This document shows, piece after piece, positions 3,357 to 55,092 of a stretch of 55,094 bases of DNA. This DNA is from a virus. Lineage: Duplodnaviria; Caudoviricetes. The DNA lies in IMG/VR virus record IMGVR_UViG_3300020074_000024, positions 1 to 55,094 of that record. One strand, given 5' to 3'. The notes beneath the pieces were generated by a model. It did no database searches. It worked only from the letters and a program-made list of their open reading frames with translations, and had not been told where the DNA came from. Position 1 is the first letter of the stretch, and the number at the start of each line of letters is the position of its first letter. Both the position numbers and the translations under genes were made by a program.

Positions 3357-4291
3357 GTTACCCCCCTGATTTTTTGTATCGTCTCGGCATCTATCCGAGG
3401 AGCCTCGTGGAATGAAAAAGAGGCCCACTCCGCACGAATCTGCCCAGGGTGCGGGCGGCTTCCCTGCTTGCCTCTCCAGTCGTAACGCCTCCACCAGATA
3501 GCGAAGCGCGCCAGTGATTCGGGAGACTCTCCCTGCTTCACCAAAAAGCCGACCAGAGAGTTGAGCATCTGCCGCTGACGCTTGGTCAGAGTCGCCATGT
3601 CATACCCACAGACTTCACAGGCCTTAACGAAAAGAGAACCCGCAGGGGCCTTCTCCGTAGGAGAAGGCGAGCTATCTTCTAAGCCAGGCTTAAGGCTCTT
3701 AGGCTTAAGGCTCTGAGTATTTCGCTTATTTGACGAAGTACTCACCGGAGTATTTCGCCGTTTTGACGAAGTACTCGCCGATTCTACTCTCTCACAATAT
3801 TGTGGGAAAGTACTCTCCTGCTCTACTCTCTCACGGTGTTGTGGGAGAGAAGCGTTGCACTCATTTGCGAAAGTAACCAGGGCGTCGCCCCCAGGGCCCA
3901 CCCCTGCGCTAGCCTCTTCAGCAAGGCAGGTATCCTGCACGCCAACCCGAGCTTCCTCAGGGGCGTGGGAGCCAAGTGCGGTGTCCTCTGTGGGACATTC
4001 CGCGTTTCTAATTCCAAAATTAGAAACAAACCAATCGCAAATATCCTGGCGGGCCTCCCCGCACAGAATCGGCGCAACTCCGTTGTGACGGATAGTAAAC
4101 GTCGCCAGGCCCATGTCTTCAAGTTGTTTCCTGGCCCTGTCCAGCGAGGACAGGCTAATACCCAAGTCGTCGGCCATAACCTTGCGACCTGGGCAATCGC
4201 CGTCCAAAACAATGATGTACGAAAGCAACGCAGCGGCAACTAAGTCGCCCGTCTCGCTCAAGAAGCGATAGGGCACTACAAGGGCGTTCAT
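3353..4291 (-). CDS. Phage replication initiator (N-terminal wHTH)
   Basis: HTH PGRKVMADDLGISLSSLDRARKQLEDMG, low-complexity linker containing DNA repeats, directly upstream of the DnaC-like loader. Confidence 0.75.
   Translation of the reverse strand: MNALVVPYRFLSETGDLVAAALLSYIIVLDGDCPGRKVMADDLGISLSSLDRARKQLEDMGLATFTIRHNGVAPILCGEARQDICDWFVSNFGIRNAECPTEDTALGSHAPEEARVGVQDTCLAEEASAGVGPGGDALVTFANECNASLPQHRERVEQESTFPQYCERVESASTSSKRRNTPVSTSSNKRNTQSLKPKSLKPGLEDSSPSPTEKAPAGSLFVKACEVCGYDMATLTKRQRQMLNSLVGFLVKQGESPESLARFAIWWRRYDWRGKQGSRPHPGQIRAEWASFSFHEAPRIDAETIQKIRGVT
3686..3850. repeat. Iteron-like direct repeats inside the Rep gene (putative origin)
   Basis: aggcttaaggctct x2 (3686, 3701); gagtatttcgc..ttgacgaagtactc.ccg x2 (3715, 3748); tctactctctcac..ttgtggga x2 (3783, 3822). 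Confidence 0.6.
4004..4027. promoter_or_regulatory. Palindromic site TCTAAT-N6-ATTAGA
   Basis: GTTTCTAATT-CCAA-AATTAGAAAC, perfect 10-bp arms, inside Rep. Confidence 0.65.
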
Positions 4292-4467
4292 TCCTCAGCC
4301 CGCTCCACATAGAACAGGCAGCCCTTTCGCTGATGCTTTGCCTTGCATCCGTCGCAGTACATCTCCCTGGCCGACGACCGCTTCATAATCCAGGTATCGC
4401 CGACCTTGAGCCAAATGAGGCGGGGCCGCAGGCTATTCTGCGGCCCCAGGCAATTGTATTTGCTCAT
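4288..4467 (-). CDS. small Cys-containing hypothetical protein (59 aa)
   Basis: Below track cutoff; MSKYNCLGPQ...YCDGCKAKHQRKGCLFYVERAEE; ATGA overlaps at both ends. Confidence 0.7.
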   Translation of the reverse strand: MSKYNCLGPQNSLRPRLIWLKVGDTWIMKRSSAREMYCDGCKAKHQRKGCLFYVERAEE

Positions 4468-5069
4468 GGCAGCACCGGCACAATGCGGAACTTGACGTCA
4501 GCCCCGTCGTCAGGCAAGTAACCCTGCTCAGACGACGCCTTGATGACAATGATGACACGCTCACTGCCGTCAGGGAGCGTCTCGAAAGTAACCGTTCCCT
4601 CCCCAGTGTATGGGTCTGCGTAAACCTTCTGCACCCCGCTGGCAAGGTCAATCTCCCTGCGAAGGCGCTGGCAGCTCCAGCCACCCTGCTGAGCCTTGAG
4701 CAACCAGTCCTTCTTCACGTCGGGGCCGTCCAGCTTGGCGACCGGGGCCCAGTGAGAAAACGTAACACCATCGCCAAGAATGCGGGCCTCGGGCTCCATC
4801 CGGCGGGCGATGGAAGCAGTGTTCATCAGTGTACCCACCCCCAGCCCAGTGACCTTGACCGCCTGAGTGTACCTCTGACCCCAGCGGCGCTCGCCAAAAT
4901 TGAGCCAGTCACCCAAGTAAACATCCATGAGTTGCTTTTGCTCCTGGAGAACGCCGCCAATGCGTTCCCAGACAGCATACGGCGTGTCGTCGGCAAGCTC
5001 AAGCCCTTTGTCGGTGAAGCTCACATACTTCTCCAATTCCTGAATCCGAGTCGCGACCTCTGCTGCCAT
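4464..5069 (-). CDS. LmbU-like DNA-binding protein
   Basis: W..IG...YLGDWLNFGERRWG..Y..A...LMN.ASIARR...R....FSHW pattern; ATG 5069 with GGAGGG RBS below a promoter. Confidence 0.6.
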   Translation of the reverse strand: MAAEVATRIQELEKYVSFTDKGLELADDTPYAVWERIGGVLQEQKQLMDVYLGDWLNFGERRWGQRYTQAVKVTGLGVGTLMNTASIARRMEPEARILGDGVTFSHWAPVAKLDGPDVKKDWLLKAQQGGWSCQRLRREIDLASGVQKVYADPYTGEGTVTFETLPDGSERVIIVIKASSEQGYLPDDGADVKFRIVPVLP

Positions 5070-5092
5070 CTTACCCTCCCTCTTTGACCTAT

Positions 5093-5121
5093 AGTATAGC
5101 ATATAAACGCTATTTTGTCAA
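5093..5121 (-). promoter_or_regulatory. sigma70-type promoter TTGACA-N17-TATACT (extended -10)
   Basis: agtata 5093-5098, tgtcaa 5116-5121. Confidence 0.8.
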
Positions 5122-5463
5122 AGATGCCTTCAGCCTCTTGCTCTGCTCCTTGGAGCCGTGACACCACGTCCCCTCATCTGTGCGGTGGCTGTACCACTGA
5201 CCGTTGGGCCCCGACTTGAGCTTCATCGGCACTTGATGCGTCTCGCAGATGACGGTATCAGGCACGTCGCTGTTGCCAGCCTTGTTTGCAGCCTTGTCGC
5301 CAGGGAGCCAACGTCTCTCGACCAGCTTTTTTTCCAGTGCAGTCCACCTGTTGAGCAGGGCAGACGCTTCGTCTTCGGTAACATCCTCGCGCAGCGTCAG
5401 CAGCAGGTCATATCCCGCCGCTGTGCGCACCTTCACGGTCAGGCTCACTTTCGCCTCGTTCAT
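5110..5463 (-). CDS. hypothetical protein with C-terminal CxxH...H...C putative zinc site
   Basis: ATG 5463 (MNEAKV) with AGGAGG RBS; CETH...YSH...WC. Confidence 0.7.
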   Translation of the reverse strand: MNEAKVSLTVKVRTAAGYDLLLTLREDVTEDEASALLNRWTALEKKLVERRWLPGDKAANKAGNSDVPDTVICETHQVPMKLKSGPNGQWYSHRTDEGTWCHGSKEQSKRLKASLTK

Positions 5464-5896
5464 CGTTACCCTCCTTTGAAATGTTAATGGCTGTAACCCA
5501 GCCAAGCAGAAACGATAGCGCCCCGGCATACTCGATGGCTTCGAGTAGCCCGGGGCTGTAAAACGTAGTGAGTCCGTGCCCTCTCAGCTCGGTCAGAAAG
5601 ATACGCTCTGTGTATCCCTTGACTAGCCGCATGATAGCGGCCTGCTCGTCAGGCGAGTACACGTCCCACAGCGCCACCATCTTCTGGACAAGCAGGGCCG
5701 CATCCGCCGTGGCCATGTCTCGCCTCGTCGCTGTCGGGATAAGGCGTAGCAAGGACTCAAGTTTGTCAGCAGGGACGCCTGTGTCCCGCATGAATTGCCG
5801 CGCCTCAGGCGTGTCCATGAACGCTCCGAGGGACGGAGCAAGGGAGACATCAGCGTCACCAAACAGAGAATGATAAAGTTCGGCTAGTCCGTTCAT
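5408..5896 (-). CDS. hypothetical protein
   Basis: 162-aa ORF coupled (ATGA) to the upstream HTH gene. Confidence 0.65.
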   Translation of the reverse strand: MNGLAELYHSLFGDADVSLAPSLGAFMDTPEARQFMRDTGVPADKLESLLRLIPTATRRDMATADAALLVQKMVALWDVYSPDEQAAIMRLVKGYTERIFLTELRGHGLTTFYSPGLLEAIEYAGALSFLLGWVTAINISKEGNDERGESEPDREGAHSGGI

Positions 5897-6761: not shown

Positions 6762-6967
6762 TATTTGCTCCAGGCAACACAAGTGCAAGTGGCAGGCAAC
6801 TCGGCCACTATTTCAGCCCGTTCTCGCTCAGAATGAAAAATGGCGTCGGAGTCCTGTACCCATGTCTCCCCGTGCCAGTCCTTGCACTCGGCAAGTGTCT
6901 CCATGAAGCCAACGGGGTCATCAGTGCTGACCGCCGTACGTCCAGGATAGAACACGATATACATCAC
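6761..6967 (-). CDS. hypothetical protein
   Basis: 68-aa ORF coupled on both sides. Confidence 0.65.
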   Translation of the reverse strand: MMYIVFYPGRTAVSTDDPVGFMETLAECKDWHGETWVQDSDAIFHSERERAEIVAELPATCTCVAWSK

Positions 6968-7161
6968 CCCTCCAGCTTTCTAACCGCCCTCGATAACTCA
7001 AGGAACGGCCCTTGCTCCTCGATGAAGCGCTCAAACTCGTCAGGGTCAATCCGGCACATTACAGCCAGGTGATAACGCATATACTTACGGTACAACTCGG
7101 AGGGATTGCCATCCGTGCAGTTACGGTAATAATCCCATGCCCGAATCATAGCTTTTTGCAT
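6964..7161 (-). CDS. hypothetical protein
   Basis: 65-aa ORF; alternative start 7149 (ATGA overlap). Confidence 0.6.
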   Translation of the reverse strand: MQKAMIRAWDYYRNCTDGNPSELYRKYMRYHLAVMCRIDPDEFERFIEEQGPFLELSRAVRKLEG

Positions 7162-7766
7162 GACTGCTCAAACTCCAATCGCACCAATTCGCCCTTCAGG
7201 AATTTCTTGAACTCTCTTTCGTCAAGGCCGTACTTGACCGCGATGTGCTTGACCGTTGAGCAGTGCCTCAAGTATGAGTAGGGCCATCTCCTGGAGGGGC
7301 CGCGTATGTCGTTGCAGCAATCCTGATACTCGCCAGCATCGGGGAACCATTGCCCTGAGCGCCACTTCCCATATTGCGTAGGGCGAATCTTGCCCTCGGC
7401 CTTGCCGATGTACTCAGCAGCCGCCTGCTTCATGCGCGTGAGTTCAGCGATAGCCCCCTCGTACTCCTCGCGAGTCAACAACGGCGGGGGATTGTTCGGG
7501 TCAGTCGGGTCGTAGTCACACTCCTCGCATGGGTCGAAGCAACCAGAGTCGTTGACGGGAAAGGCCGTTCCGCACCTGGGGCAAAAGCCCCTACCGATGC
7601 AGTAAGGGCAATCCCCCGTGTTGACGACATCAACGCTTGTGTCCCCGTATGGAGCAGAGTCCGCAGAATCAACGGCCCCGTCACCGCCGCAAGCGGGACA
7701 CCAGAGCGAGGGCCGAGCCACCTCGTAACGGTGAATCATGCGCTCGTTCACCTCTCCTCCTCTCAT
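7146..7766 (-). CDS. Zn-finger (multiple CxxC) protein with C-terminal CC...PSR...HC domain
   Basis: CPACGG, CPYC, CPRC, CEEC; C-terminal DCCNDIRGPSRRWPYSYLRHCSTVKH. Confidence 0.7.
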   Translation of the reverse strand: MRGGEVNERMIHRYEVARPSLWCPACGGDGAVDSADSAPYGDTSVDVVNTGDCPYCIGRGFCPRCGTAFPVNDSGCFDPCEECDYDPTDPNNPPPLLTREEYEGAIAELTRMKQAAAEYIGKAEGKIRPTQYGKWRSGQWFPDAGEYQDCCNDIRGPSRRWPYSYLRHCSTVKHIAVKYGLDEREFKKFLKGELVRLEFEQSCKKL

Positions 7767-8651: not shown

Positions 8652-8670
8652 CTCACTTCCTCCTGACTAT

Positions 8671-8699
8671 AGTATAGCAGATATTGCCTATTTTGTCAA
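8671..8699 (-). promoter_or_regulatory. sigma70-type promoter TTGACA-N17-TATACT (extended -10), head of the early region
   Basis: agtata 8671-8676, tgtcaa 8694-8699. Confidence 0.82.
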
Positions 8700-8729
8700 G
8701 CGTTTTAGCGAAAATAGACGGCCAATTTT

Positions 8730-9388: not shown

Positions 9389-10164
9389 CCAAACTCGTAG
9401 GAGCCGGAGTCCACAATGAAAAAGATACCGCCAACAGGCGTAAACCGTGAGGCAGCCCCCAGCTTGAACAGAAACTCGCTACGCATCTGCCAACCAGGGG
9501 TCAGCACAACCCTGGGGCGTGATACCTGCCCGCTATCCCCCAGTGTGTGAAGATGACTGAACACAGCCACGTCGGGCGGGGCGACGCCCTCCTCGGCGTG
9601 CCAGTCATAGAGTATTTTTGACAGACGCGCAGGCAATTGCGGTAACGTCCAAGGCATACTGGCGCGACCAGGTGGATGATGCTCAAAAAGAAACCTGACT
9701 CCCTCAACCTCCAGTCTGAGCGACCACCACGCAGGAGAACCCGGGGCAGGAACTGCCCCGATGACCCTGGCCAGTAAATCCTCGCTGGAGCCAGCGTAGC
9801 CGACGTGGAACCGAGACCCCTTCACAATGAAAATCTGCTCCGCTACTTCAACGGCGGGCTTCATGCAAGCTTCTGCATAAATCACCGCGTCGGCGCTGGA
9901 TTCACTAATCCTGCCATAGCGGGCCATCTCAGGGTCGTCAACACCATCCCCATTGAGCACGCAGATAACCGTGGCCCCGTGCTTCTTTTTCAGGGCGGCT
10001 ATGTCACGCCAGTAACTACAGTATGCCTCCCACAAAGCCTCCTGTGCCCTGGACAGAATGACAGGACTGGGACCCTCTGTGGTTTGCCGAACCTGGCCCG
10101 GCGGACACAAACCGACGCTGGAGTTTGGGTGCGTGTCAGCTATGCCTGCTATGATGACGGTCAT
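9262..10164 (-). CDS. Calcineurin-like metallophosphoesterase
   Basis: IADTH, LNGDGVD, VKGS..H, EHH, SHLH motifs. Confidence 0.8.
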   Translation of the reverse strand: MTVIIAGIADTHPNSSVGLCPPGQVRQTTEGPSPVILSRAQEALWEAYCSYWRDIAALKKKHGATVICVLNGDGVDDPEMARYGRISESSADAVIYAEACMKPAVEVAEQIFIVKGSRFHVGYAGSSEDLLARVIGAVPAPGSPAWWSLRLEVEGVRFLFEHHPPGRASMPWTLPQLPARLSKILYDWHAEEGVAPPDVAVFSHLHTLGDSGQVSRPRVVLTPGWQMRSEFLFKLGAASRFTPVGGIFFIVDSGSYEFGWRRYHWRRDNWVSINSEQPKTTSSSNTGRHLDMDRRSGATG

Positions 10165-36528: not shown

Positions 36529-36546
36529 TCTAATTCCAAAATTAGA
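36529..36546. promoter_or_regulatory. Palindromic site TCTAAT-N6-ATTAGA
   Basis: TCTAAT TCCAAA ATTAGA overlapping the GT stop, 4 nt from ATG 36524. Confidence 0.7.
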
Positions 36547-38764: not shown

Positions 38765-38776
38765 ATCCTCCTGGAT

Positions 38777-38803
38777 AAGGGGGCGGGGTAGCCCCGCCCC
38801 CTT
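38777..38803 (-). terminator. Hairpin after the major capsid gene
   Basis: AAGGGGGCGGGG-cta-CCCCGCCCCCTT, 12-bp arms, weak U-tract. Confidence 0.55.
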
Positions 38804-38810
38804 GCATTCG

Positions 38811-41322: not shown

Positions 41323-41999
41323 AGCTCCTCCCAGGGCCATTCATCGAGCAGGCCCTTGGCTTCCACTTGTCTGTCGGCAAGGCAGTGTTGCTTCTGCTTG
41401 CCAAGTCGCATGTACACGTCCCCGTCCCTGGCGCTGCGCTTGAGGCGATGGACGTGCAGCCCGTGATAAGGCCGTTTGTAGCTGTTGAAGTAATGAAAAA
41501 GCGCCTTGTCATGCAGCGCGAGGTCAAATGACTCAGGGCATTCAAAAGGGTACTCGCCGTTCCAAGCGTCTGTCAACGGGAAGAGCGCCGCCCGGTTGAA
41601 CACGTCGTCAAGCAAGATAAAGTCCTGGCCCTGCTGTTCAATCGTCACCAGCTTGGTCATGCCCATTCGCGCAGGCATGTCCTGGGACAGTATCTCGTCA
41701 ATGCCGCTGGGATAGTATATCTCGTCGCCGTCCACCTGGAAGCCCCAGGTGAACCCCTCCCTGATCGCCTGCTGCGCCAAATCACCACGAATCCCGCCGA
41801 GCTTTCGGGCATCGCACTCCCCGTACTGAGTCAGCCTGGCCCAGGGCTCAAACTGCTGAACACTCGCCACGGTAGCATCGGTTGACCCCGTATCGCCAAC
41901 AAAGCAAGCGGAGAACCTGTGCAGCGAGGAGAGAATGGCGTGAATGAAAAACTCCTCGTTGCGTATCATCAGCAAGGGAGCTATACTTGCGGGAACCAC
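41313..41999 (-). CDS. Glycosyltransferase family 2
   Basis: MIRNEE, VGDTGSTDAT, QVDGDE. Confidence 0.85.
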   Translation of the reverse strand: MVPASIAPLLMIRNEEFFIHAILSSLHRFSACFVGDTGSTDATVASVQQFEPWARLTQYGECDARKLGGIRGDLAQQAIREGFTWGFQVDGDEIYYPSGIDEILSQDMPARMGMTKLVTIEQQGQDFILLDDVFNRAALFPLTDAWNGEYPFECPESFDLALHDKALFHYFNSYKRPYHGLHVHRLKRSARDGDVYMRLGKQKQHCLADRQVEAKGLLDEWPWEELCR

Positions 42000-42397: not shown

Positions 42398-42425
42398 AGT
42401 ATAGGGAAAACTATTTACTTGTCAA
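42398..42425 (-). promoter_or_regulatory. Promoter-like TTGACA-N16-TATACT immediately upstream of a terminator
   Basis: agtata 42398-42403, tgtcaa 42420-42425. Confidence 0.55.
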
Positions 42426-43178: not shown

Positions 43179-43207
43179 AGTATAGCATATATTGCCTAGT
43201 TTGTCAA
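43179..43207 (-). promoter_or_regulatory. sigma70-type promoter TTGACA-N17-TATACT (extended -10)
   Basis: agtata 43179-43184, tgtcaa 43202-43207; near-identical to the early promoters. Confidence 0.82.
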
Positions 43208-43745: not shown

Positions 43746-43963
43746 TCCTCCATAATCTCGGCTCTGAGGTACGCCCCGTCATACCTCTGCGGCGCACCTT
43801 CGATGGCTTTGCGTACAGCGGCCTCGTCCTTGCGGTCTATGTCGCGCAGCATGTTATCCAGGATTCGCCTGGCAATTACCGTATCTGCCTTAAGGGGCGG
43901 GAATGTGACAAAGCCAAGTGTCACCGGCCCGTCCGCGCTTGTTGTTTCAAAACGAATCCGCAT
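43742..43963 (-). CDS. 73-aa protein, candidate immunity/antitoxin of the portal-fused kinase
   Basis: Overlaps the portal-kinase stop, GGAGGG RBS; function inferred from position only. Confidence 0.6.
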   Translation of the reverse strand: MRIRFETTSADGPVTLGFVTFPPLKADTVIARRILDNMLRDIDRKDEAAVRKAIEGAPQRYDGAYLRAEIMED

Positions 43964-46259
43964 AGCTAGACCCTCCTTCAGTGTACAGATTGAACCCTCC
44001 TACCTGAATCATATTTTGAAAATTGTCCCACATAGCATCAACATCATGCTTTTTAGGGCTTTTTGACACAAGCGTTAACTTGCCCACGGATTGCTTGAAT
44101 TGCTTCTCAGTTATCCCTTTCCATCGCGCGAGCTTTTCGGGCGTAAATTGGGCGAACTCGCGTCGGTTGCTGGCGGGATAACGCACCCATAGCGCCACAA
44201 CATTCTTCCCGCTCACTATCTTGCGCCCGTTGTCGGCGTGCCCGTGGTCTATGGCCCACAGCTTGCCCTTACTGTCAAATATGTAATTGCCGCCATGCCT
44301 GTCGCCGTTCCCCATTACAATGTCCAGCGCAAGCATATCCTCAGCCCTGCTCCTGTTGTCCTTCAAGGACTTCTCCAGGTTGTCAACGTAGTCGGCAACT
44401 TTGGCGTTCTCAACAAAATACTGCACCGTCCCTTTGTTCCCCTGAAACGTCAGCTCCTTTGTTTCCGGGACAACGGGGTCATCGGGGTTAAGCATCTTCG
44501 CTACCCTGTATGCGGCAATTTCATTGTTTGCATTGTGTCCATATGCATTGTCCGCGTCCTTGTAAACCCCAGAGCCGTCACCGGCCAGCCCAACAACATA
44601 CGAGTAGTTGATGCCCCCACCGAGCTTCTTCGACGTAGCGACCTCAGTGGCCCTGCCAAAGGCGGTCCCTCTAGGCGCAGCCACCGCCGCTGCGTGACCG
44701 GCAGGATTGCGATGAATCCCGCCACCGGGCCGGCTTCCTCCCCTGTGTCCAGGCCTGCCTTCATGTCCCCAGTTACCGCTGCCAGGGCCACCCTTCTCGC
44801 CAAGCAATCTCTCGGCCTTGCGGTCGAGCAAGCTACCAAAGGCCTCATTCCATGAGCGAATCGAGGCAACAATTTGCCTTTTCCGCCACTCAGGCAATTC
44901 CTCATAGTCCGCTGCCTTTGTCTCCTCTGGAGCTTCGCTAGACACGTCGGTCACGGTCTCCTCAGTCTCCTGTGGGACAATCACCGCCGCGTCCAGTTCC
45001 TCCTCAGTCAAACAGTTCTCCCTGGCCAGGATGCGCAGCGCAACCTCTTTGGGCAAAAGTCCCGTCTCCATACCCTGCGGTGGCGACCAGAGCTTGGTCA
45101 CATAGTCGCCCCAAGCCCCTGCCAGTTGGGCTCTGTGCAAATCCCCGGCGTCGTCCTGCTCATCAAAGACAAACTCTGCCCCTTCGGGGAGCACTTCGTA
45201 GTTGAGCGCCCTCTCCAGGATACGCAGAATCTCACCAACGCCCTTCCCCTGCCCTTTGAGGTGTTGAACCTCACCGACAGCCTTGGTGGAGCCGGTGTGT
45301 GTAAACAGCCAAAACTCCCCGGCGTCCACGCCAGCGCAAGCGGACAGTGTCTTCACATACGTCTCAACTACATCCTTGCGGGTGAAGCTAGCAGGCGGCT
45401 CGCTGAAGGGAACCCACTTCACATCCACGCCCGGCCCCATCTCGTTGTTAGAAGCCAGCCACAGAAGTTTCTTGAATGTCAAGTCTCGGCTGCCCCTGTT
45501 CGCCTTCCACAAGTCAAGGGCGTCCTTGACCTGCTGCTGGTTCATGCCCGTCACCGCCGCAATGCCCTCAGGCGGCATATCGTCCAGGGCGTCTTCTTCG
45601 TACTTGTGTAAAGCAAGAAGCAGCGAGATGGTGCGGATAGCCCTGCTCACCAAAGACACGCCCGTCCAGTGAGTGGCCTCTACATCGGAGGGCATAGACG
45701 TTCTGTGAACCACGTCCCTGCTCCGCAGGGGAACAACCCTTCCAGCCGATGTGTAGTACACCAAGTCGCCGTCAGTGCCAGGAGGAAACCCCGACTCGCC
45801 CCTGAAGCGACAGTTAGCGATGTCCAGATAGGCAAGCCCTGTTACAGGGCCGTTCTTGCTGGTGCGGCCCTTCTCAAACAACGCCCCCCTGTCCTGAGTC
45901 AAAAAGCAGCGCACCCACCGCTTCAGTTCTGTGTCCCAGCCGGCGCCCTCTCCAGCAGACAGCAACATCTCCGTGGCCTGCTGAGCCAGGCGCGGCTTGC
46001 CAGTGACCTTCCATGCCGTGGTCGCCACCCTGCTGACGATGGTGTAAATCACCCCTGCCAGCAAAGGCTCCTCCAGCCAAACGTCCCTGAGCCGCTTGTC
46101 TCTCTCCACCGTCCCTGCTGGCGGCAATTGCCCGACCTTGCCCGCCAACATGGACATCATCATGAATGCCTGCCCGACATCCCCATCAAAGCGGCTCTGG
46201 ACGAACTCAGGCCGTTTGGCTTTCGTTAGTTGCCTCTGTATCCATTCCTGATAGCCCAT
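43947..46259 (-). CDS. Portal protein with C-terminal HipA/PI3K-like kinase domain
   Basis: Portal position after TerL with about 450-aa portal-like body; C-terminal LGGGIN, GVYK, NEIAAY, DRHGGNY, AIDHG kinase motifs. Confidence 0.85.
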   Translation of the reverse strand: MGYQEWIQRQLTKAKRPEFVQSRFDGDVGQAFMMMSMLAGKVGQLPPAGTVERDKRLRDVWLEEPLLAGVIYTIVSRVATTAWKVTGKPRLAQQATEMLLSAGEGAGWDTELKRWVRCFLTQDRGALFEKGRTSKNGPVTGLAYLDIANCRFRGESGFPPGTDGDLVYYTSAGRVVPLRSRDVVHRTSMPSDVEATHWTGVSLVSRAIRTISLLLALHKYEEDALDDMPPEGIAAVTGMNQQQVKDALDLWKANRGSRDLTFKKLLWLASNNEMGPGVDVKWVPFSEPPASFTRKDVVETYVKTLSACAGVDAGEFWLFTHTGSTKAVGEVQHLKGQGKGVGEILRILERALNYEVLPEGAEFVFDEQDDAGDLHRAQLAGAWGDYVTKLWSPPQGMETGLLPKEVALRILARENCLTEEELDAAVIVPQETEETVTDVSSEAPEETKAADYEELPEWRKRQIVASIRSWNEAFGSLLDRKAERLLGEKGGPGSGNWGHEGRPGHRGGSRPGGGIHRNPAGHAAAVAAPRGTAFGRATEVATSKKLGGGINYSYVVGLAGDGSGVYKDADNAYGHNANNEIAAYRVAKMLNPDDPVVPETKELTFQGNKGTVQYFVENAKVADYVDNLEKSLKDNRSRAEDMLALDIVMGNGDRHGGNYIFDSKGKLWAIDHGHADNGRKIVSGKNVVALWVRYPASNRREFAQFTPEKLARWKGITEKQFKQSVGKLTLVSKSPKKHDVDAMWDNFQNMIQVGGFNLYTEGGSSYADSF

Positions 46260-46461
46260 GCTTCCCCCAACGTTCGCTGTATCTCGCTTCCCTATCCTCG
46301 TCTATGTCCAGGCCGTGTAAAAGACAGATTTGCTCAGCCGCCCAGTCCTCTACCCGCCAGCCGAAGCGCTCGAATGAAAATAACAGACGATACCACGTCA
46401 ACACAACCCAAGCCGCAACCCCGCTGAGTAAGAATCTAATTTTGCTATTAGATTTACTCAC
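46207..46461 (-). CDS. small membrane-anchored hypothetical protein
   Basis: GTGA overlap with the TerL stop; N-terminal hydrophobic helix. Confidence 0.55.
   Translation of the reverse strand: MSKSNSKIRFLLSGVAAWVVLTWYRLLFSFERFGWRVEDWAAEQICLLHGLDIDEDREARYSERWGKHGLSGMDTEATNESQTA
46435..46452. promoter_or_regulatory. Palindromic site TCTAAT-N6-ATTAGA
   Basis: AATCTAAT TTTGCT ATTAGATT just downstream of the TerL stop. Confidence 0.7.
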
Positions 46462-47747
46462 GCCATGAATCCCCCACCGCCGCCATCGTCGTCCATCGCG
46501 TAGCGGAGGGCGTCAACCCGGTGGAATGTCTCCTTGTCCTGTATCTTTTCCGTCGGCTTGCCGTCAGTCCCCAAGGTACGCTGGTATGATTGTACGTCAT
46601 CTATCAGCCCAGGACAACTACGGAAGACGAACAGCCTATCTTGCCCCCACAGCGCGTTGAGCCTATCTATCCCCGATTCTACTGATGACACAACAGGCGG
46701 GTCAAGCGGGACCCCACACGCTCTCCAGTCCATCCGGGACTGTGTTTCGGATTTACTGCCGCCCTTCCAGACAACGACTCTCTCAGCCCGTGCGTGTTGC
46801 AGTGCCCTGGCCGAATGCTCAGCCGTTGTCAGCCCGCCGGAAAGTGTCTCGCGATACACGTAGAATGCCCTGCGCTCCCTGTCCTCAGCCACCCATACCA
46901 AGGCAGTGTTCGCACCGCCAAAGTCCACCCCTACTCGACGTGGCCACTCAGGTGGGACGTCGAAGGGCTCGACTGCGTGCCGCGCTTCCTGAAACTTGCT
47001 GAACACTAGCCACTCAGGGCGCTCGAATTGCCCGTCGTAGAACATCCTGAACTTGGAGTGGCTCACAGTGCTTCTGGCTCTCTCGTACTCAGCGGCGGGA
47101 AAGGCCGGATTGACTATACTTGGCGCTTGACAGACAAAGTAATTGGGGTCTCCACTCCTGGCCCTGTCCAAGACTTCGTGCTTCAGCCAATTCACCGCAT
47201 AAGGAGTCGTGCCCCCGAAAAACCTCCCCTGGGAGAGGCTAAGGCGTCGCAAGATAGCCTGCCAGGAGTCCAGCCTGAAAGACGGCTGGCCTATCTCGTC
47301 ACCAATCACCGCCTGAACGGTAGCTGACTCTAGCCCGCCCGGACTTTCGGCAGACCGCAGGATGACGCGGCCCCACATGGGGTCACTCGCCCGTTCAGCC
47401 CAAAATCTCCCAGTGTTCGGGTCGCGCAGTTCCAGCACTTTGTCCCCAGACCAATACTTCCCCATCTTCATGCCGTACACAAACACTTCCAGCATCGCCG
47501 GTAGCATCTTGAGCTTGAACAGGTCGTAGGTCGCCGTGACCGCCAGGTAGTCCCCCTTGCCCCTGCCCTTGTAGCCGTCAAGCCCGTATATCTCCCTGTA
47601 GAGAATCCAGGGGAGAAAAGTAGTCTTCCCGCCCTGCGTCCCGATAATCAGGAATGAAAAACGGGCCTGCGAATCCCAAAGCGACTCCTGGGCCTTGTGC
47701 AACCTGAGGCGAACCCCGCCGTCCTCGAATCCCCATAACGGCTTCAC
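46458..47747 (-). CDS. terL: Terminase large subunit
   Basis: Walker A GTQGGKTT, Walker B VIGDE, coupling motif GTTP, RNase H-like GVDFGG and HRVDALRY. Confidence 0.93.
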   Translation of the reverse strand: MKPLWGFEDGGVRLRLHKAQESLWDSQARFSFLIIGTQGGKTTFLPWILYREIYGLDGYKGRGKGDYLAVTATYDLFKLKMLPAMLEVFVYGMKMGKYWSGDKVLELRDPNTGRFWAERASDPMWGRVILRSAESPGGLESATVQAVIGDEIGQPSFRLDSWQAILRRLSLSQGRFFGGTTPYAVNWLKHEVLDRARSGDPNYFVCQAPSIVNPAFPAAEYERARSTVSHSKFRMFYDGQFERPEWLVFSKFQEARHAVEPFDVPPEWPRRVGVDFGGANTALVWVAEDRERRAFYVYRETLSGGLTTAEHSARALQHARAERVVVWKGGSKSETQSRMDWRACGVPLDPPVVSSVESGIDRLNALWGQDRLFVFRSCPGLIDDVQSYQRTLGTDGKPTEKIQDKETFHRVDALRYAMDDDGGGGGFMA

Positions 47748-48240: not shown

Positions 48241-49599
48241 TCAATCATCCAGCGAGTGGAAAGTATAGAATACGTCGCCATCCACAATGCGCGTAGGCCG
48301 CAACGCGCCTTGAAAATACTGGTAAGGCGAGCGCTCCCTCTGGGGGTCGTTCCATAGGTCGCGCAGAAAGTCGGCCCAAGTGTAATATTTGCGCTTATGC
48401 CGCTTGAGCGGCCCGGCGGGGACAGGAACCATGTTGTCCCAGGGCACAGAGTAGGCCCATGGCGGCGTTATGTCCTGCGGGCCAATCTCCGTGCCAGTGG
48501 CTTTGGCTCGCAGCAATTGATTCGTGGCGCTCTCGCGCTGCCAATTGCCGAAGACTGGGTCGTCAGGCATGATTCCGCAACAGCAGCCGGTATCGCCGAG
48601 TTCCTTCCAGACCGGGTCACTAATGCCCACGACCATGCCGTGCCTGTGCGCAACGTCGCGCACGTCATGCATGACAGCCCGCGTCCAGGCCGCAGCGGGC
48701 CGGACACATGCCCTTTGGCCGAACTTGGCGTAAGTACCCAGGTGGTCAAACCCCGTTACGTCACTCAAGAGCTTCCACCGGGCGCGCACATCGTTTGTGG
48801 GCGCACCCGGGGTGAAGGCAACCTCGTAGGAAACGGCCCTTGCGCCCGCCTCTGCCGCCGCTGCGATCAACTCGCGGTATGCATACGGGTTCGCCGGATG
48901 GCCCCAAGTCACGCCTGCCAGCATGGGCCGCAAGCGCAGTGACGTCTTCACGCCGATGCCGGACAGGGCCTTCATGGTCGCTAGTCGCTCCGAGGGCACC
49001 GGGGCCTTGCGGTCAATCTTACGCACTAGGGAATCGTCCGGGCTGACGATACTGAACGCAACCCAGAACAAGTGCGGGGCGCGTTCTAGCACCCGCAGAT
49101 AGTCAGGCTGGGCCAAGACGACGCCCTTTGTGGAGATTCTCGTCGGCTGGTTGTATTTGATTGCTAGTTCTAGATACCGCAATAGCCAGCCCTGCTGCTG
49201 CTCGATGTAATCGCATGGGTCGTTGAGTGCGCCTAACTGCACCGGACCAGGGTAGCCGTTACGCCTGTCGTCATACTTGAGAGCCTTGCGCATGACGTCA
49301 AACCGCTTGCCCTCGCCAGCGAAGAGGTTCTCTATAGAGCGCAAGCTCGTCTGCCCGACGCCCCATCCAGTACTCTGCCGGTGCGACAACAGGTTGTTGG
49401 AAAAACAGTACAGGCAAGCAAAAGAGCAGAACGAATGGCTGTCTATGCTTACCGGCAACGCACAGTCAAAACCGTCGCTAGTAAACCGGATGCCGTCGTA
49501 GGCCCGCAATCGTTGCCGAACCGGCGCGCAGTATGAGCCATCGCAACGCCGACAAGTCGCGCAAACGTTCATTGCCTCATGGCGCGGATTCTGTAGCAT
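48241..49599 (-). CDS. Radical SAM enzyme (SPL-like)
   Basis: CSFACLYC (CxxxCxxC), DP, ISTK, ERL, LRLRP; additional Cys clusters (CCCG). Confidence 0.85.
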   Translation of the reverse strand: MLQNPRHEAMNVCATCRRCDGSYCAPVRQRLRAYDGIRFTSDGFDCALPVSIDSHSFCSFACLYCFSNNLLSHRQSTGWGVGQTSLRSIENLFAGEGKRFDVMRKALKYDDRRNGYPGPVQLGALNDPCDYIEQQQGWLLRYLELAIKYNQPTRISTKGVVLAQPDYLRVLERAPHLFWVAFSIVSPDDSLVRKIDRKAPVPSERLATMKALSGIGVKTSLRLRPMLAGVTWGHPANPYAYRELIAAAAEAGARAVSYEVAFTPGAPTNDVRARWKLLSDVTGFDHLGTYAKFGQRACVRPAAAWTRAVMHDVRDVAHRHGMVVGISDPVWKELGDTGCCCGIMPDDPVFGNWQRESATNQLLRAKATGTEIGPQDITPPWAYSVPWDNMVPVPAGPLKRHKRKYYTWADFLRDLWNDPQRERSPYQYFQGALRPTRIVDGDVFYTFHSLDD

Positions 49600-50212
49600 A
49601 TTTCCTGACCGCCTTGGCGAACCAGTCGGGGTCTAGTTCGTGCACGCCGCGTTGTAGCGCTGGGGCTAGCAACAGCGACAATTCAGCAAATAGTTCTGGC
49701 CGCCCGTAGAACGTTACGTAGAACCAATTCTCGTCTTTGGTCGTACAGCCGCGCTGTTCCGTGAACTCGGGCAGAATGTCCGGCAACTCAATTGGGCCAG
49801 CAAGCTCTGCCCCTAGCTCAGCGTCCGTCCATAGACCCCTTAGGTCTATCTCCTTGCCAATATCCGCCAGCACCTCCGCATCCCACTCCGCCAGTTCCGC
49901 TGTGCGGTTGTCGTACAGTGCCAGCTTGGCCTTCTGTTCCGGTGTCAATCCCTTGCGCCGCACGGCCACAATCGTCTCGCCGTCAGCATCTACCACCTGG
50001 ACCCGCTCGATACCCGCCTGGGCTGCCGCTTCGACGAGGCCATTTCCAGCCAGGATCGTGCCATCCTCGTCAATGACGATAGACCTCGCTGCACCAACCT
50101 CGCCGAGTGCCTTCTCTATCATGCCGATGTTGCGCGCGTTGTGCTTCCGCGCGTTGCGCTTGTCCGGCCTCAGTTGCCCGATGCGCTCAATCGCTTCGAG
50201 TGACTCTGCCAT
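49577..50212 (-). CDS. ParB/Srx-like N-terminal domain protein
   Basis: LRPDKRNARKH, SIVID...ILAGNG, LALYDNR.AE..WD. Confidence 0.8.
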   Translation of the reverse strand: MAESLEAIERIGQLRPDKRNARKHNARNIGMIEKALGEVGAARSIVIDEDGTILAGNGLVEAAAQAGIERVQVVDADGETIVAVRRKGLTPEQKAKLALYDNRTAELAEWDAEVLADIGKEIDLRGLWTDAELGAELAGPIELPDILPEFTEQRGCTTKDENWFYVTFYGRPELFAELSLLLAPALQRGVHELDPDWFAKAVRKYATESAP

Positions 50213-50360
50213 TCACGTCCTCATCGTACAAATGCCGCTTGGAAAACTCCAACCGCTTCGCTTCGCCCCAATCGCCCACCGGGCGCAGGTAGCCAACGAC
50301 GCGGGAATACACCTCACAGGGAATGCGCCGCTGCTCTAGTTGCTCAAGTTCGTCATTCAC
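50187..50360 (-). CDS. 57-aa stand-alone NrdD C-terminal (glycyl-radical loop)-like protein
   Basis: Below track cutoff; GTG 50360 with GAGGG RBS; IPCEVYSRVVGYLRPVGDWGEAKRLEFSKR. Confidence 0.75.
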   Translation of the reverse strand: MNDELEQLEQRRIPCEVYSRVVGYLRPVGDWGEAKRLEFSKRHLYDEDVNGRVTRSD

Positions 50361-50407
50361 TAATCGCCCTCGTTATCGTGTCTAATGCACACAACGCCTG
50401 GAATCAT

Positions 50408-51160
50408 CTAACACCCCGCTATAGGCACACTGACCTTGCTGTTCAAATAGTTCTTTCCCTTGGCACTTGCCCCACCAGACATGCCCCCTGGCCGATAAAT
50501 TTTTGTGCCCCACTTCTTCCGCATCCTCTCAATGCCAGCGAGTTCGGTTTCCTTGGTACGCTGCGATACGAAGCCGCCAGGCATTTTCCCGTGGTCATGG
50601 ACGTAGAAGTAGCGGTTTATGCGGAGGGTCTTGCGGTACGCCCTGATGTTCTGTAGCCAAAAATCATAGTCGTCTTTGCCCAAAACGCTCTCATCATAGC
50701 GTAAAACCGGCTCCAAGTGTCCGACGAAAGGCCCAAGCACGGGCGCCAATAAGTTGAATGGCCTGTACGTATAATAGCCGAGCGGGTCACTGTTCAGGTT
50801 TATTCCCCACAACCTGACCCCAAACTGCTCGGCTAGCAGGAAGCCCGCCAAGATGATGCTCTGTAGCCTGTCAGGCTCTACGGTGTATTGTGCGCCACCC
50901 TCCCACATGCCGATTCTGCTGATGTCATCGTCCAGGATAAGCGTCCATTTGCAGGGAGACCTGTCCAGTATTGCGTTTTGCTTCCTGCCCAGGTTGCCAT
51001 CGCATTCGTCGGGAATGGTAATGATTCTGTCCCCGTAGTGGCGACGGTATTCATCCCCCTGAGACTCAGGAACCCAAACGTGGGCGAATGGCGCTACCTC
51101 CAAGGTACGCACGCGCCCTGCGCGCCCAAACGACCTGATGGCAACGTGGATGTCATCCAT
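50408..51160 (-). CDS. TAGT/GREB1-like glycosyltransferase
   Basis: IRSFGRA, ILDDDI, KDDYDFWLQ, GG motifs; ATG 51160 overlapping the ParB-like gene stop. Confidence 0.75.
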   Translation of the reverse strand: MDDIHVAIRSFGRAGRVRTLEVAPFAHVWVPESQGDEYRRHYGDRIITIPDECDGNLGRKQNAILDRSPCKWTLILDDDISRIGMWEGGAQYTVEPDRLQSIILAGFLLAEQFGVRLWGINLNSDPLGYYTYRPFNLLAPVLGPFVGHLEPVLRYDESVLGKDDYDFWLQNIRAYRKTLRINRYFYVHDHGKMPGGFVSQRTKETELAGIERMRKKWGTKIYRPGGMSGGASAKGKNYLNSKVSVPIAGC

Positions 51161-51821
51161 CGAGCAGCCCCAGTAGCACGCTGGCCGGCAGCACGCGCCC
51201 CAAGCCAACGTGCTTTATAGTCTTGCCCTTCACCGTGCCAGTCATGGCGGGCGTTATGCCGAGCTTTTCCACCGCCACCTGCCAATCAAACTCGTTGTCA
51301 AAGTAAAACACCAGATAGTCCTGGCGCTCAAAAAGCTCGGGGCTGATGGTTAGCTCCGGTTTGTCAGCCTCAGCAGCCGGGGCGGCCTCGCTGGACAAGC
51401 TCTGTAAAAGCGACCGCACGGCAGCGCTCTGTGTCTCGATGTCTCCAAGTAGCTCGGCGACTTTGGCATCATCGCGGGATGAAAGGGCGCTAATCGGGTC
51501 TAGCGTGGCCAGTACCAGCCTCTCATCCTCAGGGCTAAGGTTTACGTATGTCACAGGGAGGGTCTTCTGCCCACCGCGCATGGCCAACACCACCCGCATA
51601 TGCCCGTCCACAAGTGTCTCGACGCCGCGCTCCCCGTCCGGCCATTCCTCGCCAAGACGCCTGTTTATGATGATGTTCTGAACGACGCCGACCTCGTCAA
51701 AAATGTCCCGCATAGCAGCCTGCTGCTCCGCTGGATGAACGCGCCAATTGTTCTCGTTTGCCATCACCTGGTCAACGGCCACGTCCCCATAGCCGACTAT
51801 CCTATTCTTCCATTGCTCCAT
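51153..51821 (-). CDS. ParB/Srx-like N-terminal domain protein
   Basis: NWRVHP..Q, GVVQNIIIN, LVDGHMRV, LATLDP. Confidence 0.8.
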   Translation of the reverse strand: MEQWKNRIVGYGDVAVDQVMANENNWRVHPAEQQAAMRDIFDEVGVVQNIIINRRLGEEWPDGERGVETLVDGHMRVVLAMRGGQKTLPVTYVNLSPEDERLVLATLDPISALSSRDDAKVAELLGDIETQSAAVRSLLQSLSSEAAPAAEADKPELTISPELFERQDYLVFYFDNEFDWQVAVEKLGITPAMTGTVKGKTIKHVGLGRVLPASVLLGLLDG

Positions 51822-51825
51822 CTTT

Positions 51826-51843
51826 TCTCATTTCAAAATTAGT
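51826..51843. promoter_or_regulatory. Degenerate palindromic site TCTAAT-N6-ATTAGA (2 mismatches)
   Basis: TCTCAT TTCAAA ATTAGT spanning the PDE stop up to the ParB-like ATG. Confidence 0.5.
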
Positions 51844-52687
51844 AATAACCAAGCGCGGTTAGCCTTGCGTTGGGCGCGAGTTCATCCGCCTCTTTTGCGC
51901 CTGAATGAAAATCCGCGTACTCGAAGCCGAAGATGACAAAAATCTTCTCAGCAACGTGGTGAGTCATGCCTACATAGCCGCCGCGCTTGTAGTTGTCACT
52001 GTCCCACAGAACACCGTCCTTGGTGTGGTTTGTTCCGCAACGCTCAAACCCATGGTCGCTCACAACAATCAGCCTGCGGGCAATGTCCCTGGCCATAACG
52101 ACTATCTTGGCCGCCAAAGAACAGACAAACAGCCACGCCTCATCAGTGTAGAAGGAATGCAGGATGCGGTCTGGGAAGGTGAGTCCAAGACAGCCCAAGT
52201 CTCCCTTTGCGTTATTCCCGAACCAATCCAGCAGGAACAGAGCATCGTCGGTTGCCTTTTCAGCACAGAATGAAAAACCGGCCTTCTTGAGGCTGTCGCT
52301 CCAGCCATCAATGGTCATCGGCTGAGCCATCTGCGCCAGGTCGCCGCGTTCCTGCCAGCACACTTCAAGCGCTTCGGGAAGTGTAGCGAATGGCCCTGGG
52401 AAGCCCGACACAAAAATCGGCTTTCTGCCAACCGTTGCTATCGGCATATTGCACACCGTCCCAGGCACAGGCAGCCTGTTCCAAAACCACCTGCCAGCCC
52501 ACTCGGTCGCCAAGCGTCCGTCGGGGCCATCGCCCCATACGCTCGTTACCCCATGACGTTCAGCGGTCATACCTGTGTAGATGCTTTGCCAGGCAGGGCC
52601 GCTAACCGGCAGTGGGGAGTGGAGCCTTCCCGCGCCGTCTAGCGCCGTCACGTCGAGGCCGTCCAGCCCCAGTATCATCAACTTCAT
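51839..52687 (-). CDS. Alkaline-phosphatase-superfamily phosphodiesterase/nucleotide pyrophosphatase
   Basis: ILGLDG, SGPAWQSIYTG...HG, DRILH, VSDHGF, H...G, RL.ALGY. Confidence 0.85.
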   Translation of the reverse strand: MKLMILGLDGLDVTALDGAGRLHSPLPVSGPAWQSIYTGMTAERHGVTSVWGDGPDGRLATEWAGRWFWNRLPVPGTVCNMPIATVGRKPIFVSGFPGPFATLPEALEVCWQERGDLAQMAQPMTIDGWSDSLKKAGFSFCAEKATDDALFLLDWFGNNAKGDLGCLGLTFPDRILHSFYTDEAWLFVCSLAAKIVVMARDIARRLIVVSDHGFERCGTNHTKDGVLWDSDNYKRGGYVGMTHHVAEKIFVIFGFEYADFHSGAKEADELAPNARLTALGYY

Positions 52688-52755
52688 CCTCGTCCTCCCA
52701 GGACGCCGCAAACGCTCCGTTCAAGTGCCTCAAGCGATTCCTTGCGCTCTGTCAT
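52684..52755 (-). CDS. 23-aa coupling mini-ORF
   Basis: MTERKESLEALERSVCGVLGGRG; ATGA overlaps at both ends. Confidence 0.4.
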   Translation of the reverse strand: MTERKESLEALERSVCGVLGGRG

Positions 52756-53075: not shown

Positions 53076-53278
53076 GCCCCGCCCTTGGACGCCTCACCGA
53101 CCGCCTCGAATTGTAAGCCGTTATCGCCGTCTATCGGGGATGAGTGCCTGTTCCGTCCGGCGCGAATATCGTCTGGTATTCCGTCAGGAAAGGCGAAACA
53201 CCGAGGCCATGCCGCTAGGTAGATACACCCACGGCAGACGGGTTCAGGGATGTCGCCTGTGTCTGGGAAGGCGGTCAT
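53072..53278 (-). CDS. small Cys/His protein (CxxC...C.AFP.GIP..I..G...H..P..GD.G..F), candidate immunity protein
   Basis: ATGA overlap with the effector gene; motif recognised by eye from small genes that follow phage head-associated toxin domains. Confidence 0.65.
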   Translation of the reverse strand: MTAFPDTGDIPEPVCRGCIYLAAWPRCFAFPDGIPDDIRAGRNRHSSPIDGDNGLQFEAVGEASKGGA

Positions 53279-55092
53279 TTCTTTATCCCGTCAATGGCAA
53301 TCCAGTCGCCACCCTCGTTCAACTCCTGGATAGAGATGCCCCCACAGGGAGTCCAGTTGTCTCCGTCCGCTGAGACAAACAAGCCGCCGTCCTCCAGTTT
53401 GATATACAACGCCTGCCTCTGCTCCTCGCCGTAAACGCGCGCCCAGTACAACGTCTCCATAGCCTTCACCTTCCATGCCAGTGTTTCAATTTGAGGGGGC
53501 GGGGGCACTGTTCTCTCCACGTTTCTTTGCATCTGCACAAGGTATTTCCCCCACCGGGAGTCGCCTGGCGGCAATGCTCGTTGCCTTTGGTATGTTTTGT
53601 GGTTAAGAGTCTCCTTGGCGTGGTATGATTGCCTTGTGTGGAATTGCACCTCGAAGATGGCCCCCGTCTTCTTGTCCTGCCAATTTGTGTTAAGTCCCCA
53701 GTAGCCATAATTCTTTGTGCCCCAAAAGTTGCGGAGTTTCTTGTCATAGACCTCAAGTCCCGCAGCTCGCAGTTGCTTGAATATCTCCTTCGTTCCTGAC
53801 ACATAGTTTTCGGGCGATAGCCGTACTGTGTAGCGCAGAGCGTCGTGTACCCTATGGTAAGCTATGGCCTCCGGCACTCCATGCGACACCTCCCATAGGG
53901 CCTTACGCTCGATGCCTTCGGCAGTTTTGAAGCGGTGGTCGAGCCCGACAAGCTCCCCTCCCCCCGCCGCCGTTGCCCCTGATAGCGCGGCAGTTATTTC
54001 AGGCTCCGCTTCCGTGACGCGGGACAATAACGCCTCGGCGTTCATTGGCAGTCTGTGGTGTCCCCCTCCGGGCCTGCTCCCGCCCACATGCGGCGGGTTG
54101 CCTTCGTGCGCCCAGTGACCGGAGCCAGCCCCTCCCTTAATGACCTCAGATTGTACGGTCTGCATCAATAATGAAAAAAGTTCCTCAGACTCGCGGGACT
54201 GGAAGCCCTTTTTCCCTGCCACTGTCAACGCCCATGTTTCCGCAAACCACTCATGGAAGCCATCGCGGGCCCGTGCCGTTGCGCCGTGCTGTCTCGCAAA
54301 TGCGTCCCAAGTCGTCTTTTGGATAGTCCCACCTGCCGCCAAAAGCCCCGCCACCTGGGAGAACGTCTCCCGATGTTTTGGGTCGCGTAGATTTTTCAGG
54401 GCCCTATACCCAACCGCGTGGCCGAATTCATGCCTGGCGCACCCTTCGTAGGGGTCAGAAAATGCGTAGCTGCTGTGTTCGCGCCACAGTTCGTCCCGGC
54501 CATCCTCCATCAACTTGCCAACCCTGGCCAGGACGGCGCCCTCCATGCGGTCAGCATCGCCCATTCTCTGCTGGTGCTCTTCCGTGGTTATCAGCCCTTT
54601 CTGGAGTGCGTCGCCGGCCTTTGCACGCACCCTGTCTGCCACGGCTCCGCCATCGTTCATGAGTCTGTTGGCCTCGTCATCCCAAGATTCGTGCGGCCCA
54701 ATGATAATAGTACCGTCAGCTTTGTAGTGCCCTTGCCCTAACACGTCCCCCTGGTCAAAAATGAGCGTGCCATTCCAGTCCGACTCATGGTCCATGTTCA
54801 TCTCCTGAACCATGCCTTGCATCCGGCGGCGGACGTCCTCAGGTATCTCCCTGGGCCCGTCGCGAACCTCGGTATGATAGCGGAGCGCGGAGTCAGCAGG
54901 AGTGCCCGGCGCGCCCCCGCCCCCCGTCCACTGCCCACCTTCCGGCGCCCCTGCCGGCGCACGCGGTTGGTTCGGGTCGAACTTAGCGACGGCATCCTGC
55001 GCTTCCTTCACCGCCTGCTCTGCGCCTATCATGTCTACCCACGCCCTGCCCGCTTCCAGTGATTTCTGTGCCGCATATACCGAACCGGGCAT
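53275..55092 (-). CDS. Multi-domain (polyvalent) effector: zincin metallopeptidase + RelA/SpoT-like nucleotidyltransferase (may extend past the right edge)
   Basis: KFDPNQPR..G...GGQWT; HEFGH...EWFAE; RFK...RK, DALRYT, Y.GLN, FEVQFHT..S...KE. Confidence 0.8.
   Translation of the reverse strand: MPGSVYAAQKSLEAGRAWVDMIGAEQAVKEAQDAVAKFDPNQPRAPAGAPEGGQWTGGGGAPGTPADSALRYHTEVRDGPREIPEDVRRRMQGMVQEMNMDHESDWNGTLIFDQGDVLGQGHYKADGTIIIGPHESWDDEANRLMNDGGAVADRVRAKAGDALQKGLITTEEHQQRMGDADRMEGAVLARVGKLMEDGRDELWREHSSYAFSDPYEGCARHEFGHAVGYRALKNLRDPKHRETFSQVAGLLAAGGTIQKTTWDAFARQHGATARARDGFHEWFAETWALTVAGKKGFQSRESEELFSLLMQTVQSEVIKGGAGSGHWAHEGNPPHVGGSRPGGGHHRLPMNAEALLSRVTEAEPEITAALSGATAAGGGELVGLDHRFKTAEGIERKALWEVSHGVPEAIAYHRVHDALRYTVRLSPENYVSGTKEIFKQLRAAGLEVYDKKLRNFWGTKNYGYWGLNTNWQDKKTGAIFEVQFHTRQSYHAKETLNHKTYQRQRALPPGDSRWGKYLVQMQRNVERTVPPPPQIETLAWKVKAMETLYWARVYGEEQRQALYIKLEDGGLFVSADGDNWTPCGGISIQELNEGGDWIAIDGIKK

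Follow-up and report, generated by a model that had tools for sequence, protein, structure and literature searches.

What would read a short, A/T-rich word that recurs on only one strand of a phage genome of around 58% GC, inside genes and apparently regardless of gene boundaries? The question is raised by IMG/VR record IMGVR_UViG_3300020074_000024, a linear stretch of 55,094 bp with a completeness estimate of 74%, in which the octamer AATGAAAA occurs 19 times on the plus strand and every substantial open reading frame (ORF) is carried by the minus strand. The whole record was analysed and is called the window here, so that a word count for the window is also the word count for the record; about 26% of the genome lies outside it, and negative statements about genes cover the 55,094-bp window. 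It seems that the word is selected as DNA, in a slightly longer form, and that it may, tentatively, be what a strand-specific nicking system recognises, with other strand-reading enzymes and a transcription-linked role as the rivals to be weighed.

An exact word on one strand

A first-pass annotation of the sequence had listed 19 positions for the octamer, had seen none in the opposite orientation and had put the chance expectation at under one copy, and all of this holds. Every one of the 19 coordinates is an exact AATGAAAA on the plus strand, the minus strand has none in the whole record, and G precedes 13 of the 19 copies in keeping with the longer form that had been given. Dinucleotide shuffles yield a mean of 0.73 copies (maximum 3 in 100 shuffles), and an order-3 Markov model expects 0.73 on the plus strand and 0.23 on the minus strand. 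The zero on the minus strand is uninformative when taken alone because only some 0.2-0.4 copies are expected there, and so the signal is the enrichment on one strand, which is about 15-35-fold. Indeed AATGAAAA tops all octamers of the window by frequency, even though seven of its eight bases are A/T.

The octamer does not appear to be the whole word. The base 3' of it is A in 12 copies and T in seven, with G or C in 0 of 19, whereas elsewhere the base following AAAA is A/T in only around half of cases. One variant, AATGATAA, occurs six times on the plus strand and never on the minus strand (0.56 expected), again with A or T next in all six, and it is the sole enriched one-mismatch variant; pooled, the one-mismatch variants number 17 against 14.3 expected on the plus strand and four against 7.6 on the minus strand. 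The 9-mer AATGAWAAW stands at 25:0 (plus:minus) and AATGAWAAS at 0:0, and the full word is 5'-(G)AATGAWAAW-3', which on the coding strand reads WTTWTCATT(C). With one-mismatch variants at background and A/T at position 9 in 25 of 25 copies, the target is therefore a sharp one, much as an enzyme site is.

All 25 copies lie on the plus strand, 19 as AATGAAAAW (coding WTTTTCATT) and six as the variant AATGATAAW. From the left of the window they stand at 3411-3419 (frame 0, read F-S-F, in an ORF of 312 amino acids (aa)), 5869-5877 (variant), 6832-6840 (frame 2, F-H, 68-aa ORF), and 9415-9423 and 9826-9834 (both frame 1, F-F-I and I-F-I, 322-aa ORF). The 858-aa ORF has two in frame 0, at 14261-14269 (F-S-F) and 14753-14761 (F-S-L), and a tape-measure-like ORF of 3550 aa has copies at 16811-16819 and 19577-19585 (frame 0) and 21778-21786 (frame 1) as well as variants at 20419-20427 and 24128-24136. 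Then follow 27620-27628 (frame 2, 353-aa glycosyltransferase ORF), 29658-29666 (frame 2, 209-aa ORF), 30526-30534 (variant), 31899-31907 (frame 0, 388-aa ORF), 37226-37234 (variant, 831-aa glycosyltransferase ORF), and 41492-41500 (frame 2) and 41943-41951 (frame 1), both in a 228-aa ORF. Towards the right end the word is found at 46373-46381 (frame 0, in an 84-aa ORF between terminase and portal), at 47653-47661 (frame 0, F-S-F) in the terminase large subunit, at 51904-51912 (frame 2) and 52269-52277 (frame 0) in a 290-aa phosphodiesterase-like ORF, and, in the 605-aa head-morphogenesis ORF, at 54170-54178 (frame 0) and as a variant at 54700-54708.

A by-product of composition, of codon or peptide usage or of repeated DNA would have no function at all, and the plus strand is A-rich in places and TTT does make up 45% of Phe codons. 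But the codon-shuffled null that had been named beforehand as the check leaves the enrichment standing, with the 19 copies set against a mean of 1.64 (maximum 6 of 300); a repeat of the synonymous-codon shuffle within each gene gives a mean of 1.58 (maximum 7), and a codon permutation null a mean of 0.58 (maximum 4 of 300). Of the other codons used, TCA is rare for Ser (10%), and CAT makes up 31% of His codons. The copies are inside genes in all three frames, as had been claimed: 19 of 19 fall within minus-strand ORFs, frames 0, 1 and 2 having 10, 4 and 5, and the peptides read are F-S-F or F-S-L (10), F-F-I or I-F-I (4) and x-F-H (5). These gene calls are crude longest-ORF calls, and the ORFs holding the word include the two small ones of 68 and 84 aa. 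The terminase copy spans codons 30-32, directly 5' of the P-loop (the ATP-binding motif), where 61 of 78 homologous sequences have V (30), I (23) or T (eight) as the middle residue and only this phage has S (1 of 78). The Ser being unique, the word was put in place here at the price of an amino-acid change. It is the use of all three frames, together with this Ser in place of the usual V, I or T, that argues for selection on a DNA word, and so the earlier view that protein constraint alone is insufficient and that a directional nucleic-acid signal is present finds support, the selection acting at the nucleotide level. That the word has no function is hardly credible. A repeat element is also ruled out, the flanks being unrelated beyond positions −1 and +9.

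Where the copies sit fits a property of the whole genome rather than a gene-linked signal, as their placement relative to gene starts does not differ from random and their spread is even. Mean spacing is 2.8 kb for the 19 copies and around 2.1 kb with the variants, the largest gap with variants is 5.3 kb, and the gaps have a coefficient of variation of 0.80. Clustering or pairing was considered and set aside: there are four pairs 365-492 bp apart, yet gaps below 500 bp occur at chance (P = 0.31). Copies within 60, 120 and 200 nt of the next start codon number 3, 5 and 6 against 1.3, 2.6 and 4.2 expected (P = 0.13, 0.11 and 0.23), so that the distance to the next start is no different from random and a promoter for gene starts is rejected as a reading. 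Nor does the ATG-AAA inside the word open antisense ORFs, the median ORF from it being 30 codons against 24 for all 774 plus-strand ATGs, and flanks inspected by eye have no consistent ribosome-binding site 5' of this ATG. A terminator or structured RNA is likewise rejected, with no hairpin on either side (z = -1.0 for the upstream 40 nt and -0.5 for the downstream 40 nt); the antitermination or pause role which had been proposed gains nothing from the position and structure of the copies.

A second octamer confined to one strand is CCCAAGTC (coding strand GACTTGGG), at 14:0 and in all three frames, its plus-strand copies including those at 1247, 4161, 11334, 17300, 21443, 31223, 35330, 48903 and 54306. 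Its expectation is 2.1 by the Markov model and 3.9 by the synonymous shuffle (maximum 9 of 300), which is borderline given the number of octamers tested.

Relatives, populations and hosts

The sequence of this phage is present in seven lake-water metagenome runs, as assembled contigs, no RNA run being listed among them. Contigs of four of these runs, over 20 kb, have at least 40 differences listed, and none of those listed falls in the nine octamer copies concerned, where about 0.2 would be expected, so that their absence there carries no weight. Contig breaks fall at variant positions and not at the word, and no points at which molecules start or stop were listed for these contigs.

Relatives are few and distant. 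A search of IMG/VR with the terminase, the portal and the 858-aa protein found only two loci, with terminase identities of 45% and 39%, and the word is enriched in neither. In metagenomes the terminase has relatives at 80 loci (551 kb), with identities of at most 55%; there too the word is not enriched: the terminase strand has seven copies, and the opposite strand has 27, most of which reflect ATG-AAA gene starts in A/T-rich loci. The 72 IMG/VR loci (843 kb) that have a ParB-like gene (67 loci, up to 78% identity) or a radical-SAM gene (five loci, 49-57%) do not have it enriched either, and so among related contigs of some 1.45 Mb in total the word is shared by none. Neither do the terminase relatives have a comparable in-gene word of their own. 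Strong polar words in three other loci (L154, L207 and L216) were rejected as equivalents, for they are gene-start signals lying before start codons or between genes. Judged from these sequence comparisons, the word seems to be peculiar to this lineage or its host. Counts of AATGAAAA in five arbitrary bacterial genomes are confounded by ATG-AAA gene starts.

The gene-start word of L216, an unrelated IMG/VR phage with a distant ParB-like gene, is of some interest in its own right. It is ACACAGAAC, at 8:0, and lies a few bases before start codons (copies for example at 3199, 5417, 14985 and 17558), which makes it an uncommon kind of leader or ribosome-binding word, unlike Shine-Dalgarno.

A possible strand-specific nicking system and its rivals

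Phage genomes with site-specific nicks have been known for around 50 years, and according to the Rembedalsseter report the purpose of the nicks and the enzymes responsible are still unknown (PMC11780129). In Pseudomonas phage tf (46 kb) the word 5'-TACT/RTGMC-3' is present in 14 copies, all on the top strand and all nicked, with only 17 one-substitution relatives of the main word, all of them on the same strand (PMC3517423). Rembedalsseter has WACTRTGAC exactly 13 times on one strand, at 13 nanopore coverage drops of that strand, the expectation being about 0.7 per 45 kb; the motif of this family is common to 61 related phages, is concentrated toward one side of the genome, and in the 61 genomes has 542 copies of which 88% lie at least partly in coding sequence, mostly on the coding strand (PMC11780129). 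For T5 the nick word is 5'-R/GCGCRGG-3', which is degenerate and has five copies also on the nick-less strand, and for phiKMV-like phages it is the 19-bp consensus 5'-CGACxxxxxCCTA/CTCCGG-3' with few sites; direct terminal repeats are described in tf and in the phiKMV-like phikF77 (PMC3517423).

The word of the present phage resembles these motifs in that it is short, asymmetric and exact, is confined to one strand at no less than ten times chance, and is intragenic regardless of gene boundaries. The closest published precedent, which was not among the functions proposed in the first-pass annotation, is that of tf and Rembedalsseter. There as here the word is asymmetric, spans 9 bp, has one or two degenerate positions and is expected about 0.7 times by chance; there are 13-14 copies per 45 kb in those phages and 19-25 per 55 kb here, mostly intragenic and on the coding strand, with one-mismatch variants rare. 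(G)AATGAWAAW would on this basis be read by a DNA enzyme of the phage that is highly sequence-specific and tells the two strands apart, most likely a nicking system, which would leave one strand of the packaged genome interrupted at particular points. Nicking is the single mechanism to which we would give most weight, but tentatively and at less than an even chance, and the cutting itself we infer. Two further observations lend it a little support: the nearest isolates by terminase are T5-like phages (around 25% identity), and the record of one relative is classified under direct terminal repeats. T5 and the phiKMV-like phages resemble the proposed case in having one-strand interruptions at sequence-defined sites, with direct terminal repeats in those phages.

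Several points weigh against nicking. In tf and Rembedalsseter nicks have been demonstrated, while the present case is known from sequence alone; the former are podovirus examples, whereas this phage appears long-tailed, with its 3550-aa tape-measure-like gene and its DNA-modification genes. Their motif is shared by 61 phages and is one-sided, whereas here no relative shares the word and its spread is even, although relatives are distant (terminase at most 55%) and may simply lack the system. The word is also unrelated to the tf, Rembedalsseter, T5 and phiKMV consensus sequences, which in the window have plus/minus counts of 0/1 for TACTRTGMC, 0/2 for WACTRTGAC and 0/0 for phiKMV, the T5 and phiKMV consensus sequences having no meaningful enrichment. 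A nickase candidate was not found among the searched ORFs of the window, with the missing quarter or so of the genome lying outside the record. Literature entries retrieved for the two words held nothing relevant, and those retrieved for a known phage nickase nothing beyond the tf and Rembedalsseter papers. Finally, any enzyme that reads one strand, a primase or a RecBCD-like nuclease for instance, would account equally well for these statistics.

Since all genes are co-oriented, every copy aligns with the direction of transcription, and the word might instead act on the non-template strand or in the RNA (as UUUUCAUU), be it as a pause or anti-pause element, as a stoperator-like site at which a bound repressor forms an orientation-dependent roadblock, as a promoter (internal or late), or as a place where RNA is processed. 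Six of the 19 copies are at most 152 nt upstream of the next start codon, and one overlaps a weak sigma-70-like match at 54177-54150 (9/12). In cluster A mycobacteriophages the stoperators are of 13-14 bp, mostly intergenic and of the same sequence as the early-promoter operator; the word here is like them in having many asymmetric copies oriented with transcription across the genome, but its copies are intragenic. It is moreover in 0 of 5 of the near-consensus sigma-70 promoters (TTGACA-N16/17-TATACT) which lie between genes on the minus strand at 2419-2460, 5092-5130, 8670-8708, 42398-42425 and 43179-43207. The random start distances and the want of a hairpin speak against a transcriptional signal, as does the finding of neither an RNA polymerase nor a sigma factor in the window, where the 3550-aa ORF looks tape-measure-like. 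Late genes are apparently served by a promoter and terminator at 42425-42366 and a weakly Q-like protein, and a processing site in coding regions would destroy the messages. Taken together a transcription-linked signal seems unlikely.

Enzymes other than a nickase that move along or copy DNA could also read such a word. Were it a Chi-like polar site, read by a nuclease of the RecBCD/AddAB type or by a translocase of the host, copies would have built up in the phage in the single orientation that serves to protect or recombine its DNA, whether linear or rolling-circle; in phage P1, host Chi sites are exceptionally abundant. Like Chi of E. coli (GCTGGTGG), which serves a translocating enzyme from one strand at one copy per few kb, the word is octamer-scale and strictly oriented, at one per 2.2-2.9 kb, and relatives with a GC of 34-66%, whose hosts are probably different, would be expected to be without it. 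Chi is, however, defined by the host enzyme together with enrichment and skew in the host chromosome, and known Chi and KOPS (FtsK-orienting polar sequence) words are to our knowledge G-rich, whereas this word is 8/9 A/T in its 58% GC genome with 9-10 specified positions; to protect a linear genome from both ends would besides take two orientations, and there is one across 55 kb. A Chi-like site is quite improbable. The coding strand would be the lagging-strand template if forks follow the direction of transcription, and a phage primase or primase-polymerase could then read WTTWTCATT(C) as its template word. The even spacing given above would be of Okazaki length, the confinement to one strand is strict, and a GC skew of single sign along the whole window is compatible with one direction of replication. 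Against priming, no replication gene is found in the window, and primase recognition words are of 3-5 nt, none being known to us as strand-exclusive or this strongly enriched; we give it a low probability. Distinctly unlikely too is a DNA-modification target, in which the single C:G pair of the word or an adenine would be modified on one strand and the mark would be the signal, for example in self-recognition. The word does have exactly one C:G pair, and the window has a PF20691 protein, a radical-SAM protein, two ParB-like proteins, a phosphodiesterase-like protein and two methyltransferases, but such targets are not normally enriched by selection and the carriers of ParB-like (up to 78%, 67 loci) and radical-SAM (49-57%, five loci) genes are without enrichment. 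Put more broadly, that the word marks not a nick site but a new genome-wide directional signal, whether a template word for lagging-strand starts or the Chi-equivalent of a GC-rich freshwater host, is somewhat unlikely. What probability the separate readings above do not take up is left for other mechanisms.

Promoters, gene content and implications

In four of the five sigma-70 promoters a TG precedes the −10 element, and four have some 40 bp in common, including the spacer and an upstream GTCAAAACGC. A strong intrinsic terminator (42391-42366) comes directly after the promoter at 42425-42398 on the minus strand, and this unit sits just upstream of a late-gene run of around 33 kb, a layout reminiscent of the late promoter of lambda. 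The 206-aa protein encoded at 7146-7766 weakly matches Q-like antiterminators (E = 3e-5), and the arrangement suggests that the late genes are one long antiterminated transcript. The conserved phage promoter had 0 matches when scanned against IMG/VR and 57 in genome contigs, these being consensus promoters of a generic kind, spread over many phyla. In the same lake runs, contigs that belong to other organisms have only promoter stretches of about 36 bp in common with the phage (8673-8708 and 5090-5126), and their flanks are unrelated and A/T-rich. Ten contigs from metagenome-assembled genomes of Chloroflexota (L098, L104, L108-L111, L125, L135, L141 and L143) have a promoter with one common spacer, TTGACAAA(A/T/C)TAGAACATAT(G/T)TGCTATA, and this promoter looks overlapped by what we take to be a LexA-type box.

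The recognisable genes of the window are all on the minus strand. At its right end are a head-morphogenesis protein of 605 aa (53275-55092) and then a stretch adjoining the terminase (48241-52711) which, from its gene content, is probably a DNA-hypermodification cluster. It comprises the 290-aa type I phosphodiesterase-like protein (51839-52711), a TET-associated glycosyltransferase of PF20691 (50408-51208) flanked by two proteins with ParB-like N-domains (51153-51821 and 49577-50212), and the radical-SAM protein (48241-49599); a TET/JBP dioxygenase was not seen within the window. The large terminase (46458-47747), which a small helix-turn-helix protein adjoins, is followed by a portal-like protein (43947-46259) with a sub-threshold match to Phage_portal. 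The C-terminal segment of the latter (residues 592-675) matches the PI3/PI4-kinase family PF00454 (E = 1e-8).

A major-tail-protein-like gene (26710-27324) is followed by two small ORFs and then by the 3550-aa ORF (15319-25971), which consists of alpha-helical repeats of some 45-50 aa and has no match in Pfam, PHROG or PDB. On account of these repeats and its position downstream of the major-tail-protein gene it is probably tape-measure-like; at the usual 1.5 Å or so per residue of a tape measure, 3550 aa would imply a tail of several hundred nm. A virion RNA polymerase, guessed at from the size of the ORF, is rejected for want of any match in those databases. Several glycosyltransferases and methyltransferases lie among the structural genes (36542-39037, 27261-28322, 41313-41999 and 28971-30222), and their target may perhaps be virion proteins rather than DNA. 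A tail-fibre-like gene of 799 aa has about ten tandem repeats of 57 bp (19 aa) at 33757-34330 in plus-strand coordinates, the left end of the window carries an AAA ATPase and a DUF2201 protein, and a tRNA search of the window found none.

Whatever reads the word, the case is a clean example of selection at the DNA level overriding protein sequence, as the terminase Ser (1 of 78) makes plain. A Chi-like or priming role, if it is one of these, would open a direct way to study an uncharacterised host enzyme or a new mode of replication control. If the word is indeed that of a strand-specific nicking system, the nick phenomenon would extend to an unrelated and uncultured freshwater phage with a different, A/T-rich word, and nick systems would be findable from sequence, as exact one-strand words which survive a codon-preserving null.

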